Assembly (NCBI GenBank): GCA_001004885.1
Contig: LCRX01000003.1
Coordinates: 1,650-65,649, forward strand
Direction of reading: 5' to 3'
Source of the DNA: Candidatus Magasanikbacteria bacterium GW2011_GWA2_56_11
Lineage (GTDB): Bacteria > Patescibacteriota > Patescibacteriia > Magasanikbacterales > UBA922
DNA length: 64,000 nucleotides
Shown here piece by piece: positions 2,884 to 36,102 of this stretch (its first letter is position 1; each line of letters opens with the position of its first letter). The notes under the pieces are model-generated. The model had not been told where the DNA came from and did no database searches. It was given only the letters and a program-made list of their open reading frames with translations. The position numbers were made by a program, and so were the translations under genes.

Positions 2884-4490
2884 CGGGCCGACAACTTCCG
2901 GTCAAGCCCCAAAACCCGGAGAATCCTCTCCGGCGAGAGAGCCTGAAACTCGGCTCGTCTGTCCGGCGAGGAATACAATACGTTATAGATATCCGGCAGC
3001 AGCGGACTCATCGCCTCGGACAAGGTGATTTTTTTTGCCAATTCCACAAAATGACCGTAACGTCCGGCGGACTGTTCGATTAGCATGTCGATGCCTGTGG
3101 CCGGCGACAGCCCCTGTTCGGCATCTCCCATGTAAGCGAGCACCATGCCGTCGCCTCCCAGCTCCTTAGTCTGGACCGGCAAGACAGCCGCCGCTTCGGT
3201 TTCTTCACCGACCGCGGCCAAAAAACCGCGCCAGGCTTCTTTGAGCATGGTCAGATCATTTACCTGGCTAAATCCTCCCAGGCACTTTACGCCGTAATAT
3301 AACGAAACCACCAGGTAGCACAGAGCCATACTCGGAAAAATTTGTTTGCGCGCCAGCGCTTCCTGAATCGCCTCCGGCGTCAGGGCGATCACGTGTTCGC
3401 CGCTATCGGAGCGCAGTTCGCCGTCTTTGAGAATCAGCCGAACGCGGTGCAATCGTTGATCCACCGCCCAAAAAAAATAGGTGCCCCAGCCGTTCTCAAG
3501 CGAGAAGCCGCCCGGCAGGTTATTAAAAAACCGCTGGGCCAAATTCTGGTGCCCGGGGTCAAAAAAGAGACGATACAAAAGCGACTCGGAATTTGTGAGG
3601 TGAAAACGCAGCAGGAGTTCATTCACCAGGGTTTCGATTTCGAGATAAATCAAATCCGGAATCCTCCCGGAGGGCCGGACGGGAGTCGCCGCCTCCGGCT
3701 GGTGGTGAAAAATAGCCGGCCACAGGTCGTAATTGATCTTCGTTACTTGAGCGGCAAAATCTGGCGCGGCCAAAACCGAAGGCAGAGAAAAATAACGATC
3801 GAGGACCTCCCCGATGCGCTGCGCGCGCCGGGCGGCAATCTCGCCGCTTTTTTGCTTCAGAGCGAGCTGCGCTTTGGCTTTGGCTATCTCTTTGTCGGCA
3901 AAAGCCGGCGCGCCATAGACCACCGACATCTTGAGCCGGTCGGGCAGGATGGGCAAACGGACAAGCACTCCGGCGCCATTGTCCTGGCTGTGAAAAACCA
4001 GACCGCGGGGGAATGAAGTATTGTTTACCGAAATGCTCGCGAAAGAAAAACTGACCAAATATGGAAGGTCGGGGCCGGACTGGTCAAAGTACGGCAAAGC
4101 TGAAATGATGTTTGAATTGACGAAAAACGGGTGGGTGATGGGGCCGTGATGGTCGGCAGTCGACACCAAGGGAAGACGCCCAAGCTGTCGGGCCACTGCG
4201 TCGCCGACATCCGCGCCGAGACGCGCGGTAACAAGTTCTCTGGCGACAGTAACCAAATCCTGTTTGCGGGTGTCTAAATGCGGAGTTTTGTTAACATCGG
4301 TAAAATCTTTCGCGTAGTCGTAAAGAGTTTTGCCGGCGTGCTTGCGCATGATCTCGCCGAGAATCGGCCGCCGCTGCCAGATATGCGTTTTCATCTCTTC
4401 GAAAACGGATAGCAGGTCAGTGCCAGTCTGTGCCGGTGATAAGCTCTCTGTGAGAGGATTAATGTCGAGGTTGGCCTCGCTAAGGGGCAT
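2880..4490 (-). CDS. Hypothetical protein (536 aa), no recognisable motif
   Basis: A long uninterrupted ORF with coding-like composition. No family was recognised. Confidence 0.5.
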   Translation of the reverse strand: MPLSEANLDINPLTESLSPAQTGTDLLSVFEEMKTHIWQRRPILGEIMRKHAGKTLYDYAKDFTDVNKTPHLDTRKQDLVTVARELVTARLGADVGDAVARQLGRLPLVSTADHHGPITHPFFVNSNIISALPYFDQSGPDLPYLVSFSFASISVNNTSFPRGLVFHSQDNGAGVLVRLPILPDRLKMSVVYGAPAFADKEIAKAKAQLALKQKSGEIAARRAQRIGEVLDRYFSLPSVLAAPDFAAQVTKINYDLWPAIFHHQPEAATPVRPSGRIPDLIYLEIETLVNELLLRFHLTNSESLLYRLFFDPGHQNLAQRFFNNLPGGFSLENGWGTYFFWAVDQRLHRVRLILKDGELRSDSGEHVIALTPEAIQEALARKQIFPSMALCYLVVSLYYGVKCLGGFSQVNDLTMLKEAWRGFLAAVGEETEAAAVLPVQTKELGGDGMVLAYMGDAEQGLSPATGIDMLIEQSAGRYGHFVELAKKITLSEAMSPLLPDIYNVLYSSPDRRAEFQALSPERILRVLGLDRKLSAR

Positions 4491-4605
4491 AGGGGGGATT
4501 TTGAAACCAAGCCAGTATAAGAGAAAAACCTAAATCCGTCAAGGGATAGGCAAATTTTAATTTTAAAATTAGCCCTGTAGGGGCTAATTCTGCTCGGGCC
4601 TAGGG

Positions 4606-4914
4606 CTAATAAACAGCTCTTTCCAAAGCCACAAGACAGGCGGCGCCGTCTTCGCACTCCCAAACTTTTACCAGCGTATGGCCCGGCAACACCCGGTGCG
4701 CTGCCGCGGCGAGCGCGCCGGTGCCGATGCCGTGGACGACCCGGCAATACAGTTTTCCTTCTTTATAAAGCAAAAACAACTCGCGTTCGAGCTGTTCTAT
4801 GGCGGCGGGGATAGTGCCGGCCTGGTGCAGATCAATAACCGCTATATTCGGGTCAAGACGGGCGGCGAGGAGACGGAAATAATTGTCATTCTGAGAATTC
4901 TTCGCTGCGCTCAT
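4606..4914 (-). CDS. Smr-domain protein
   Basis: IDLHQAGT...VVHGIGTGAL resembles the Smr signature IDLHG...IIHGKGTG. Confidence 0.55.
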   Translation of the reverse strand: MSAAKNSQNDNYFRLLAARLDPNIAVIDLHQAGTIPAAIEQLERELFLLYKEGKLYCRVVHGIGTGALAAAAHRVLPGHTLVKVWECEDGAACLVALERAVY

Positions 4915-33686: not shown

Positions 33687-33811
33687 ATCGTGTAATCTAA
33701 TGGAACAAATCGCTCATAGTATACCGCAAATTTATTAAAGCTCCCAACCTAGTAGTAGAGGGACGCCAGAGCTGTTGAGTTAAAAATTGTAAGCGGTATA
33801 CTAGTCGGGCT

Positions 33812-34834
33812 ATGCCCAGAATAAAGTTCGTTAAAATTCAACCCTGGGACTTCTTTCTCAAAGTCAAAAAAGCCAGCGGCCTTTCGTTCAAAGAAATGGC
33901 CCAGCTATGCGCCACGCACCGGCGCACGCTTTCCGACTGGAAAAGAGGCCGGTACCTAATGCCATTGTCGGCCTATGAGGCTTTATTTAAGCTAGGCGGA
34001 AATGAAGAGGTGATTTCAATCATTCCAGATTATAGCCACGCCTCGGCAGCCGGCAAGAAAGGAGCGGCGCGACGTTACCAAATCCATGGGAATCCCGGCA
34101 CGGATGAAGGCCGGAAACGCGGTGGATTGGCCGCGGTAAGAAAACTTACCGCAATTTACCCCCATGCCATAATCACTAAATTCCAAAGGAGACGGCCGAT
34201 TGCCTTGCCGGAACTTTCCTGCAATCTGGCGGAAATGATCGGAATTATTCTGGGAGATGGGCACGTTAGCGCTTACCAGACTACTGTTACACTGCACTCA
34301 CTGGACGACCGGTTATACTCTGGATACGTAGCCAAGCAATTTGAATCCCTCTTCCAAATTAAACCGGCCATATACGAGCGGCAATCCACACTGGTGATTA
34401 CCGTTGCCCGCGTGGCTTTATCCGAATACCTGCACTGCCAACACGGACTTTCAAGCAATAAAGTGAAGACACAGGTGTCAGTGCCGTCGTGGATAGTACG
34501 CCATGATAAATTTGCCCAAGCGTGCGTACGGGGGTTAATTGACACTGATGGCTGTTTCTATGTCGACCGGCACCAATATCTGAATAAACGATATCTTAAT
34601 TGCGCCCTGAACTTTACCAATCGTTCCTTGCCGATACTAAAGTTCGTGAAAGACACCCTGAGCAGCCTGGACTTGCATCCGACACAAAAGACGCCGTACA
34701 GTATTTTTCTGCGGCGGGAAAGGGAAATCGAGCGCTACTTCAAGGAAATCGGATCTAACAATCCCAAACATACAGATAAATTTAAGAAGTTCATCGCCAA
34801 CAAAACACACGGAGGAGTACCGAAGCGGTCATAA
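33812..34834 (+). CDS. Free-standing double-motif LAGLIDADG homing endonuclease with an N-terminal HTH-like region
   Basis: Two LAGLIDADG motifs: LAEMIGIILGDGHVS and VRGLIDTDGCFYVD. The last 8 codons overlap the 5' end of tRNA-Ser(CGA). Confidence 0.8.
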   Translation: MPRIKFVKIQPWDFFLKVKKASGLSFKEMAQLCATHRRTLSDWKRGRYLMPLSAYEALFKLGGNEEVISIIPDYSHASAAGKKGAARRYQIHGNPGTDEGRKRGGLAAVRKLTAIYPHAIITKFQRRRPIALPELSCNLAEMIGIILGDGHVSAYQTTVTLHSLDDRLYSGYVAKQFESLFQIKPAIYERQSTLVITVARVALSEYLHCQHGLSSNKVKTQVSVPSWIVRHDKFAQACVRGLIDTDGCFYVDRHQYLNKRYLNCALNFTNRSLPILKFVKDTLSSLDLHPTQKTPYSIFLRREREIERYFKEIGSNNPKHTDKFKKFIANKTHGGVPKRS

Positions 34835-34902
34835 CGGGACGGTCTCGAAAACCGTTTGCCCTCAAAAGGGGCACGAGGGTTCGAATCCCTCCTCCTCCGC
34901 CA
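34811..34902 (+). tRNA. tRNA-Ser (anticodon CGA), CCA encoded
   Basis: GGAGGAG ta CCGAagcggtcataaCGGG aCGGTCTCGAAAACCGt long variable arm GAGGGTTCGAATCCCTC CTCCTCC g CCA. Confidence 0.8.
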
Positions 34903-34921
34903 AATTATTCATACACCCAAT

Positions 34922-35008
34922 GGAGAGATGGCTGAGCGGTTGAAGGCGGCGGTCTTGAAAACCGTTGAGGATGAAAGTCCTCCGTGGGTTCGAATCCCAC
35001 TCTCTCCG
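34922..35008 (+). tRNA. tRNA-Ser (anticodon UGA)
   Basis: GGAGAGA tg GCTGagcggttgaaGGCG gCGGTCTTGAAAACCGt variable arm CGTGGGTTCGAATCCCAC TCTCTCC g. Confidence 0.8.
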
Positions 35009-35032
35009 CTTCCCGGGATGATCCCCCAAGGA

Positions 35033-35057
35033 GCCGTACGAATCGTACGGCTTTTTT
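35033..35057 (+). terminator. Rho-independent terminator after the tRNA-Ser pair (gccgtacg-aatc-gtacggc then T6)
   Basis: A perfect hairpin followed by T6. Confidence 0.65.
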
Positions 35058-35059
35058 GC

Positions 35060-35500
35060 TGAGATGAGCAGCGTTCCGTCTTTGAGTACGAGGTTCGAAC
35101 TGAGATTTCGGATTATGACGCGGCGTTCTTCGGGCGTCCCGTTCACGAACAGTTCCGGGGCCTTGCTTAGCCAAGAAACGCGGGAGGCCAAGGGTTCGAA
35201 CTGCTCTGGTCGCTCGGTCCGCGCGAGCTCCTGAGAGAGCCGCTCGCGCTCGAGCGTGTAGCGGCGCGAGTCGAGCTCGAACGCCTGGTCGTCGAAGCGG
35301 CCGTCAAGCCAGCCTTCGCGCAGGCTCGCGAGGCGCGGCGCGGGTAGAAGAGGCCGGCGTCGGTCCCGCGCGTGTTCATATTCTCGAAGAGCTTCCCGAT
35401 GATGTCGAGCTCGGTCATCGTGATCATGGGTTCGTGGTTGCCCGAAGCCGTTTGTCCGCCGAGCACCATGACCCCGGCGCAGAACTGGTCGCGAAGCATA
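35060..35500 (-). pseudogene. Degraded high-GC segment with a metallophosphoesterase-like fragment (GNHE) and a recombinase-like C-terminal fragment abutting the tRNA-Ser 3' end
   Basis: Minus-strand fragments VMVLGGQTASGNHEPMITMTELDIIGKLF and, in another frame, ...YTLERERLSQELARTERPEQFEPLASRVSWLSKAPELFVNGTPEERRVIIRNLSSNLVLKDGTLLISAKK. The frames are broken and GC is about 68%, against about 57% nearby. Confidence 0.3.
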
Positions 35501-35634
35501 CGGCAGTTGGCTGCCCGTTCAGCGATGGTATATACTGAAATTCTACACCTGGGAAGGGCGGCGGATTGCTGCCTTCCGGCTACCGATCGCAGACGGAGCT
35601 GCTGTGGTCGGTTTTGAAAGACAGGAGGAATCCA

Positions 35635-35751
35635 TGAGGAGGACAGAGAGCTGGTTTGCGCGGTGGCATGAGCTTCTGATGGTGCTCGCCCTCATCGCCA
35701 TGGTGGGCCTCGTTGCTCTGGCGGTTTGGGCCTTCGTAGCAGCCACATGAG
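35635..35751 (+). CDS. Candidate 38-aa single-TM peptide (MRRTESWFARWHELLMVLALIAMVGLVALAVWAFVAAT) with an AGGAGG RBS
   Basis: A strong Shine-Dalgarno (gacAGGAGGaatcc ATG), and an 11-bp-stem hairpin immediately downstream (ggacagcgtgt...acacgctgtcc). Confidence 0.25.
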
Positions 35752-36102
35752 ACAGGGACAGCGTGTTGTTGCTCGGCGACACACGCTGTCCACATCCACG
35801 AAAGCCCCACACTTGTGTGCTCGTGGCGCGCAGTACCCGTGGGCCACACGCACGGCTCGCCGGCTGCTTGGGAGAGTAGTGTGGGCTGATTCTGTGTGAA
35901 GTTAGCTAAATCTAGCTTCTTGGATGAACGGCTGAGACGGTCCAACCGGGCCCAGATACGCCGTCTTCCGGCGCGCGCTTCACCTTCTGGTCGGCGTCCC
36001 TACCGAGATCGCTCCGGCCCGCCCCTTTTACCGCGCCGAAGATTACCACCAGCGCTATCTGGAAAAAAGCGGCCGCGGTTCCTGCCGCATCTAATATTGC
36101 TT

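Follow-up and report, generated by a model that had tools for sequence, protein, structure and literature searches.

A homing endonuclease gene that ends within a tRNA gene

The stretch of DNA analysed here, referred to as the window, comprises 64,000 nucleotides (positions 1,650 to 65,649) of contig LCRX01000003.1 from Candidatus Magasanikbacteria bacterium GW2011_GWA2_56_11. It contains an open reading frame (ORF) at 33812-34834 on the forward strand, which starts with ATG and encodes 340 amino acids, and two genes for tRNA-Ser that were located on the same strand with ARAGORN: tRNA-Ser(CGA) at 34811-34902 and tRNA-Ser(TGA) at 34922-35009. The tRNA genes obtained Rfam scores of 55.7 and 58.3 bits, respectively, compared with a gathering score of 29. 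The ORF is a homing endonuclease gene (HEG) with a probable Xre-type helix-turn-helix (HTH) region at residues 1-125 and a monomeric double-LAGLIDADG core at residues 135-335. It shares 24 nt with the gene for tRNA-Ser(CGA), and its TAA stop codon (34832-34834) coincides with nucleotides 22-24 of the tRNA, in the D-arm, exactly as stated in the original prediction made for this locus. We argue below that the overlap marks a mobile element that probably invades tRNA-Ser genes and supplies a substitute for the part that it displaces.

The assignment to the LAGLIDADG enzymes was borne out by profile searches, motif conservation and structural modelling. Pfam LAGLIDADG_3 matched residues 236-314 with a score of 32 bits (E=1.5e-7; cut-off 22.5 bits), a segment that includes motif 2, CVRGLIDTDG (34523-34552, forward strand), with the catalytic Asp246. 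Motif 1, LAEMIGIILGDG (residues 139-150; 34226-34261, forward strand), with the catalytic Asp149, falls outside the segment scored by Pfam, yet it is invariant across the family alignment and forms the first LAGLIDADG helix in an AlphaFold (AF2) model, which was computed from an alignment with 33 relatives of 31-49% identity and reached a mean confidence (pLDDT) of 91.4. Residues E141, G144, G148, D149 and G150 of motif 1, G241, D244, D246 and G247 of motif 2, and also K217, were each retained in all 71 loci for which conservation was scored. The top match of the model in a Foldseek search against the PDB was I-Tsp061I (E=5e-10); the C-terminal 200 residues aligned with monomeric LAGLIDADG enzymes, and further matches included I-AniI, I-DmoI, I-OnuI and intein endonuclease domains, while a sequence search against solved structures gave nothing informative. 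By both its motifs and its modelled tandem alpha-beta-beta-alpha-beta-beta-alpha fold, the predicted protein is a monomeric two-motif LAGLIDADG nuclease.

The HTH-like region that had been suspected at the N-terminus is supported mostly through the relatives. In the window protein itself, HTH_31 gave a weak match to residues 19-59 (33866-33988, forward strand) of 18.8 bits, under the cut-off of 27 bits, whereas HTH_3 was identified in 7 and HTH_26 in 5 of the 33 relatives (best E about 4e-6). In this segment R38 is invariant and D42 and W43 are near-invariant in the family, and the model places a helical bundle at residues 11-59. At the other end of the protein, the tRNA-encoded tail GGVPKRS has a pLDDT below 50, with the last five residues disordered. 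The identical protein was found on 11 contigs, always in the same context. In the NCBI record it is named "Type II/IV secretion system ATPase", a name without any support from the sequence.

A widespread family linked to tRNA-Ser genes

Homologous loci (denoted by L and a number) were collected by scanning one genome per species, which yielded at least 559 loci; the best 80 of these were used for detailed counts of genomic context, including those of isoacceptors, abutment and stop codon positions. A profile search against 1.8 billion cluster representatives retrieved 920 clusters at E<=1e-30 and 50% identity. The original prediction considered the coupling of such genes to tRNA genes to be uncommon in bacteria, which these numbers contradict. 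No description of an association between LAGLIDADG genes and tRNA-Ser in bacteria was found in full-text literature searches, and the family is apparently undescribed so far. Carriage by phages was considered and rejected, since the matches in IMG/VR were limited to LAGLIDADG cores that are distant (25-33% identity) and lack the HTH region.

Rather than occurring in unrelated contexts, the ORF has a tRNA-Ser at its 3' end in 79 of the best 80 loci, and no other type of tRNA was found at that position in this set. The tRNA-Ser is on the same strand and abuts the end of the ORF in 74 of them. The other six of the 80 loci comprise two in which a tRNA starts before the contig ends, two with convergent orientation, one with a distance of 762 nt and one in which the contig ends at the stop codon. 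The gap between the stop codon and tRNA position +1 ranges from -148 to +63 nt, and a conserved NPKH motif is located 31-44 nt from the same position. In 41 of the 74 abutting loci the stop codon lies inside the tRNA-Ser gene, so that the overlap is well above chance. Many of the 33 homologues share the C-terminal peptide G[GE]VPK[RW]S, which is simply a translation of the 5' end of tRNA-Ser.

The linked tRNAs are of the isoacceptors CGA (29), GGA (18), GCT (17) and TGA (11). In a neighbour-joining tree of the proteins, the clades sort by isoacceptor (CGA/TGA, GGA and GCT) and not by host taxonomy. The hosts include many classes of Patescibacteria, marine Nitrospira (with complete chromosomes among them), Omnitrophota and Planctomycetota. 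The convergent tRNAs in L032 (4990-5120) and L046 (4993-5180) also have non-canonical D-arms, and a terminator precedes the tRNA in L032.

Many of the elements are compact, with 0-60 nt of non-coding DNA around the ORF. At some loci the ORF is squeezed 0-17 nt behind another tRNA and must therefore be read from the tRNA operon; in L024, L033 and L078, a complete tRNA-Ser(TGA) ends 11-17 nt 5' of the ATG. In L051 (1205-1391) and L055 (3815-4001), the longest possible ORF extends back through an upstream tRNA-Ser(TGA), which creates the spurious N-terminus MAEWLKATVLKTV, and gene callers are likely to mis-start such HEGs.

Empty, occupied and decayed alleles

Orthologous sites without the HEG were identified for the window locus in four relatives (L199, L200, L201 and L202). 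In these, the gene for tRNA-Ser(CGA) is located 52-135 nt from the start of the EamA gene, from which it is divergently oriented, and has the canonical D-arm TG-TCT-GAGTGGTTGAA. The EamA homologues are 53-57% identical to that of the window and the Wzy-VTT-EamA synteny is preserved. The comparison identifies the tRNA-Ser region as the insertion site. The suggestion that the pair of tRNA genes forms the homing target thus holds in part: a tRNA gene is the predicted target, whereas it is the single abutting tRNA-Ser that is concerned and the tRNA-Ser(TGA) of the window, with its canonical D-arm, is an ordinary neighbour. In L202, a repeat of about 20 nt of the 3' end of tRNA-Ser(CGA) (GCGGAGAGGGGGAGATTCG; 3028-3050 versus 3199-3284) is located about 150 nt past the gene and resembles an att-type scar.

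Marine Nitrospira provided a denser sample of alleles at one site. Five representatives share the order serS, 10 nt, HEG, 10 nt, tRNA-Ser(TGA); another intact HEG was found in L196, from a lineage with only 75% SerRS identity, and 6 Nitrospira genomes in all have the intact arrangement. Searches anchored on SerRS identified eight empty Nitrospira alleles, in which serS and tRNA-Ser(TGA) are separated by a spacer of 31-680 nt, and a metagenome scan with SerRS, in which other phyla predominated, gave three empty sites from Nitrospirota among the matches listed. The SerRS proteins of two of the strains with empty alleles, Ca. N. allomarina and Ca. N. neomarina, share 97% and 95% identity, respectively, with the one from strain DJ, which bears the HEG; no remnant of a HEG was found in the spacers of these two. 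In L197 the HEG has decayed, with residues from about 5 to 230 lost, a frameshift and in-frame stop codons, and L198 contains another disrupted copy. Occupied, decayed and empty alleles are intermingled at all depths of the SerRS tree.

The dN/dS ratios of the Nitrospira HEGs were 0.17-0.29, indicative of purifying selection. In each of the genome pairs compared, the synonymous divergence (dS) of the HEG was 2-3 fold below that of serS next to it, as expected if the HEG moved between lineages, although the contrast could partly reflect differences in codon usage or saturation. By the presence/absence polymorphism at one site among close relatives and by the decayed copies, these allele comparisons indicate that the HEG is mobile.

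Other insertions were observed at the same tRNA genes. A Nitrospirota contig (L109, 945-1627) contains a 700-nt insert between serS and tRNA-Ser(TGA) with an unrelated ORF of about 120 amino acids instead of the HEG. In L195, from a HEG-less Nitrospirota genome, a GIY-YIG/T5orf172 ORF (4420-4887) starts within or just past tRNA-Ser(TGA) (4406-4493) and represents a second type of nuclease adjoining this tRNA. The similarity between Nitrospira species in L004, L008, L010, L017 and L019 ends exactly at the 3' end of tRNA-Ser(TGA), and in Ca. N. neomarina a serine-recombinase island (Resolvase, Recombinase and DUF2924; L191, 4384-6284) is located at this 3' end. With the recombinase island at the 3' end and the HEG at the 5' end, tRNA-Ser(TGA) is therefore struck from both sides. 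In the window, the segment at 35060-35900 that adjoins the 3' end of tRNA-Ser(TGA) has a GC content of 0.615 compared with about 0.55 and no intact ORF; its minus-strand frames are frameshifted and it may be a decayed island. A resemblance by eye to the tail of a recombinase found no support from Pfam or from a tblastn search with phage proteins, and this identification was rejected.

Replacement of the D-arm

The tRNA-Ser(CGA) of the window has the D-arm TA-CCG-AAGCGGTCATAA-CGG, in contrast to the canonical D-arm at the four empty orthologous sites. The segment at 34811-34837 (forward strand), which contains the 5' strand of the acceptor stem and this variant D-arm, is the candidate replacement 5' part brought in by the element, and the tRNA at 34811-34902 as a whole is predicted to be a functional chimera.

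The same contrast was seen within Nitrospira. The seven occupied or decayed alleles have the D-arm TA-GGA-AAGCGGTTTAA-TCC-T, except for L197, in which it is TA-CCG-AAGTGGTCACAA-CGG, whereas the eight empty alleles have the canonical D-arm TG-NNN-GAGYGGNYGAA-NNN-A. A variant D-arm is thus present in 7 of 7 occupied and 0 of 8 empty alleles (exact probability 1/6435, calculated by hand), while the other 60 nt of tRNA-Ser(TGA) are identical in the two classes. Since a polymorphism in the variable arm is present in both allele classes, a recombination breakpoint is located just past the D-arm. On the left side, the identity of about 95% between an occupied and an empty strain breaks down 45 nt before the serS stop codon, and the SerRS tail ...GLDRIALK (425 aa) foretold the presence of the HEG in new lookups. 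The pattern is one of co-conversion, as judged from these alignments: the HEG covaries with the D-arm (nt 8-27) and with the final 45 nt or so of serS, and not with the variable arm or the downstream flank.

In the wider family, a nucleotide other than G at position 13 was found in 57 of 77 HEG-linked and 15 of 43 unlinked tRNA-Ser genes (Fisher p=4e-5). A rule that the linked tRNA always has a non-canonical D-arm was rejected, as the difference is a statistical bias alone (74% versus 35%). In the GGA clade, as in L015 and L079, the D-arm TC-GCA-TAG is found in the displaced piece, and it is the rebuilt tRNA that has a canonical look. What holds generally is therefore a difference between the rebuilt tRNA and the target, and not an oddity of the rebuilt tRNA.

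Displaced tRNA fragments and candidate hybrid promoters

An alignment of the 125-nt spacer upstream of the HEG in the window with the empty sites revealed a tRNA-like stretch directly 5' of the HEG. This stretch, AGAGGGACGCCAGAGCTGTTGA (33757-33778, forward strand), appears to be a decayed remnant of nt 1-22 of the native tRNA-Ser, of the canonical D-arm type. It agrees with the canonical consensus at 17 of 21 positions, is identical to nt 2-22 of the adjacent tRNA-Ser(TGA) at 16 of 21 (shuffle p about 0.04), and starts 55 nt before the ATG, as do the fragments in L021, L001 and L030.

The canonical consensus of the tRNA-Ser 5' end, for which 21 positions were scored, was then searched for in the 170 nt preceding each of 47 HEGs. 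Eight of the 47 loci scored at least 15 of 21, compared with about 0.9 expected from shuffled sequences and one on the reverse strand. An earlier test that used the linked variant tRNA as the query and compared mean scores only had shown no signal of displaced fragments, an outcome that was reversed by the scan with the canonical consensus. The clearest fragments were found in L021 (GGAGAGATGTCTGAGTGGTTGA, followed by the cassette) and L001 (GGAGAGGTGCGTGAGCGGTTGA), then in L030 and L079, and by inspection in L014 and L015. In L021, L001, L030, L079 and the window, they consist of tRNA nt 1-22, end with GGTTGA, are truncated in the D-loop and start 53-58 nt before the ATG. As the truncation is always in the D-loop and at a fixed distance, the cassette was inserted at about nt 22/23. 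The acceptor strand of the fragment agrees with the linked tRNA in L001, L021 and L023.

Candidate -35 hexamers are made up of the displaced TTGA and the first bases of the cassette: TTGAGT in the window, TTGACA in L006, L018 and L021, TTGACT in L030 and TTGAAA in L001. In 11 of 37 loci, compared with 4.8% of shuffles, 16-17 nt separate such a hexamer from a -10 box, and 6-10 nt separate the end of this box from the ATG, as in TTGACA-17-TATACT in L021 and TTGACA-17-TATAAT in L018. In the window, the promoter scan identified the sigma70-like candidate TTGAGT-N16-TATACT (33775-33802, forward strand), which would be a hybrid of a -35 box from the displaced D-loop (GTTGA) and a -10 box from the cassette. 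With the end of its -10 box 9 nt upstream of the ATG, this candidate implies an mRNA that is nearly leaderless. An AGTATA-type -10-like box close to the EamA start (33728-33735, forward strand) is also present in the HEG-less orthologues, as seen in the alignment with L199, L200 and L202; tentatively, it probably belongs to the promoter region of the native tRNA-Ser and was kept upstream of the insertion.

No promoter was found in the scan between the ORF and the tRNA in the window, and a strong intrinsic terminator, a hairpin with a U-run (35028-35060, forward strand; -17.3 kcal/mol, z-score -3.6), is located past tRNA-Ser(TGA). The ORF and both tRNAs, including the non-invaded tRNA-Ser(TGA), are therefore probably co-transcribed as a single unit that ends at this hairpin. 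Cleavage of such a transcript by RNase P at 34811 would strip the ORF of its stop codon.

A probable homing cassette that rebuilds its target

Taken together, these findings make it likely that a compact homing cassette has invaded the gene for tRNA-Ser(CGA) in the D-loop and brought along a replacement for the 5' end of the tRNA. The cassette consists of a short leader with a -10 box, the 340-aa HTH-LAGLIDADG gene and a substitute for tRNA nt 1 to about 27, which has a D-arm of another type and overlaps the last 8 codons of the endonuclease gene. The end of the ORF would overlap the tRNA because the gene carries a substitute for the first 25 or so bases of the tRNA. Insertion at about nt 22/23, in the D-loop, with the stop codon as the right-hand junction in the clade of the window, would have shifted the native nt 1-22 about 1.05 kb upstream, where they decay and where their GGTTGA may provide the -35 box of the HEG. 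The native 3' two-thirds of the tRNA and the imported 5' third would then form a working chimeric tRNA-Ser.

In the proposed cycle, the enzyme would cut an uninvaded tRNA-Ser gene of the matching isoacceptor near the DNA for the D-loop and the anticodon stem, and repair off the invaded allele would copy the cassette into the cut gene. In the rebuilt allele the site is split as well as altered, which may render this allele immune. The two homology arms are possibly tRNA sequence, which would explain the spread across phyla.

Several observations weigh against this reconstruction. The fragment in the window is degenerate (17/21), with a shuffle p of about 0.04 when taken alone, and 39 of the 47 scanned loci have no clear fragment, including those of Nitrospira, in which there is none. 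In L014, L015, L079 and L071, the acceptor strand of the fragment is 1-2 nt off pairing with the 3' strand of the linked tRNA. Non-canonical D-arms are also present in 35% of the unlinked tRNA-Ser genes, and the two convergent loci, L032 and L046, with tRNA-Ser on the strand opposite to the HEG, are left unexplained by the model. The contrast in dS is subject to the reservation given above. Many loci are derived from metagenome-assembled genomes for which the host labels may be wrong, and labels such as "Gammaproteobacteria" on some of these may be binning errors. Finally, the linkage to tRNA-Ser, the anatomy, the three kinds of allele (empty, occupied and decayed), the replaced D-arms, the breakpoints and the displaced fragments were seen in the sequences themselves, whereas the cut site, the immunity, the use of the promoter and the co-transcription are inferred.

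Part of these observations could be accommodated if the HEG were an ordinary free-standing gene inserted in the spacer 5' of the tRNA, with an ORF that runs to the first stop codon in the tRNA, which we regard as unlikely. The D-arm would then be a hitch-hiking or immunity polymorphism, as with the Seg and Mob genes of T4, and the upstream fragments would be leftovers of neighbouring tandem tRNA-Ser genes. Such a history fits the Nitrospira HEGs, which lie cleanly between serS and the tRNA and are fragment-free, the complete tRNA-Ser(TGA) genes 11-17 nt before the ATG in L024, L033 and L078, and the lack of a recognisable fragment at most loci. It does not fit the recurrence, in different clades, of the same end-point in the D-loop at a fixed 53-58 nt from the ATG, which random decay of an adjacent gene would not yield, nor the match of the fragment acceptor strand to that of the linked tRNA in L001, L021 and L023. 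Moreover, the whole D-arm including the 3' strand of its stem is replaced, as suits a junction within the gene. Rather than merely adjoining the tRNA, the cassette appears to form the replacement 5' part of the tRNA with its own 3' end.

Two other origins are less probable still. WhiA is a vertically conserved transcription factor with a LAGLIDADG domain and a C-terminal HTH that has lost the catalytic residues, and a LAGLIDADG scaffold combined with an HTH is also seen here. The dN/dS of about 0.2, the syntenic retention in several Nitrospira species, the HTH domain and weak WhiA-type Pfam matches in 3 of the 33 relatives could be taken to suggest a domesticated host regulator of this kind, or a tRNA-Ser-associated factor, kept for its function and not for mobility. 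We find this very improbable, given that the catalytic Asp residues (D149 and D246) are present in 71 of 71 loci, that the HTH is N-terminal, and that the distribution is patchy: the HEG is missing in strains with 95-97% identical SerRS, decayed copies exist, strains with and without it are intermixed on the host tree, and the dS of the HEG is below that of the flanking gene. A WhiA-like class was accordingly rejected. The remnant of a former intron or intein context that the original prediction also entertained, that is, a stranded ORF with decayed ribozyme or splicing domains, is scarcely plausible. In its favour, the best-known LAGLIDADG genes of the candidate phyla radiation (CPR) are those in rRNA insertions (PMC11270868), and group I introns can occur in tRNA genes of bacteria (PMC3984707). 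However, the ORF is located upstream of the tRNA and not in the anticodon loop, and a single anatomy with 0-60 nt of non-coding DNA beside the ORF recurs in 79 of the best 80 loci. The ORF also has its own Met start and HTH region and is not in frame within a host protein. At the locus, Rfam searches at the gathering threshold and at E<=1 matched the two tRNAs alone and no intron family, in line with the earlier view that the gene is not within an intron, and Pfam identified LAGLIDADG and HTH domains alone, with no Hint/intein or splicing domains in the window protein or its relatives. Both a group I intron-encoded and an intein-associated endonuclease were rejected on these grounds; the cassette, as reconstructed, sits inside the tRNA gene itself.

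Beyond the invasion of the D-loop by a homing cassette, a more far-reaching interpretation is possible, if rather doubtful as a whole: that the family is a homing system that works by exon replacement on a structural RNA gene, is self-sufficient and combines four features. Its homology arms, nt 1-22 and nt 28 to the end of the tRNA, may allow it to move between phyla and to spread foreign D-arms, which would give rise to chimeric tRNA-Ser genes. Its promoter may be self-assembled, the displaced D-loop providing the -35 box and the cassette the -10 box, and its mRNA may be leaderless. In the clade of the window, maturation by RNase P may cut the mRNA 21 nt before the stop codon, and non-stop decay may then tie the dosage of the endonuclease inversely to the processing of the tRNA.

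Relation to other mobile elements

The closest analogues, by their anatomy, appear to be the mORF elements of fungal mitochondria, in which LAGLIDADG or GIY-YIG ORFs in atp6, atp9, cox2 and nad3 bring along a replacement gene end, for example in atp6 of Allomyces macrogynus and in Glomus sp. (PMC3630166). In both cases an endonuclease ORF travels with a foreign copy of the gene part that it displaces, a hybrid functional gene results, the native piece persists as a duplicate without function, and neither introns nor inteins take part. The combination of a divergent carried copy with a truncated native end beyond the ORF was found in the fragment-bearing loci, the copy in the window being degenerate. 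Unlike the tRNA-Ser HEGs, the mORFs are organellar and target genes for proteins; in their case it is the 3' (C-terminal) end that is replaced, and the native piece lies downstream. The tRNA-Ser HEGs have bacterial hosts, target a tRNA and replace the 5' end, with the native piece upstream; the replacement overlaps the last codons of the endonuclease, and the displaced piece seems to supply the -35 box.

SegB of phage T4, a free-standing GIY-YIG homing endonuclease in a tRNA gene cluster (PMC2330249), is similar in that it is intron-less, recognises tRNA-gene DNA, as is predicted for the tRNA-Ser HEGs, and brings about co-conversion of nearby tRNA sequence. It differs in its nuclease family, in recognising a T-psi-C motif common to many tRNAs, in its intergenic location, in moving between co-infecting phages and in that the target is not rebuilt. 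The LAGLIDADG enzymes described from the CPR so far are encoded in rRNA insertions, and tRNA is not mentioned (PMC11270868). The compact two-domain LAGLIDADG fold and the CPR hosts are shared with I-Tsp061I, I-DmoI and the enzymes encoded by CPR rRNA insertion sequences, which differ in being located within rRNA introns or insertion sequences and in having no N-terminal Xre-type HTH.

Integrative elements use the 3' ends of tRNA genes as att sites and restore the tRNA. Like these, the tRNA-Ser HEGs are inserted in a tRNA gene and keep the tRNA functional through a duplicate of the displaced segment. Integrative elements differ in using tyrosine or serine recombinases, the 3' end of the gene and an identical duplicate, whereas the tRNA-Ser HEGs would depend on repair of a LAGLIDADG double-strand break, use the 5' end and bring a different D-arm.

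Elsewhere in the window, the 5' part of a 23S rRNA gene, clipped by the window edge, is located at 1-1106 on the minus strand. Its 1106 nt align to model positions 1-946 alone, and the surplus of about 160 nt could be a CPR-type rRNA insertion.

Biological significance

Homing endonucleases are thought to persist in essential genes inside self-splicing introns or inteins. The tRNA-Ser HEGs would represent a third route in bacteria, for an RNA gene, in which the element substitutes the piece of the gene that it displaces. Hundreds of ORFs that adjoin tRNA-Ser genes in Patescibacteria, Nitrospirota, Omnitrophota and Planctomycetota, and that are unexplained or misnamed, would thereby be accounted for. 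It would also mean that D-arms of tRNA genes are moved horizontally by a selfish element, which bears on the evolution and identity of tRNAs. The family comprises about 900 meganucleases, which are diverged and compact and have an additional HTH module; their natural targets may be read from pairs of empty and occupied alleles. With empty, occupied and decayed alleles, it offers a clean natural case of what would be the full homing cycle in free-living bacteria.

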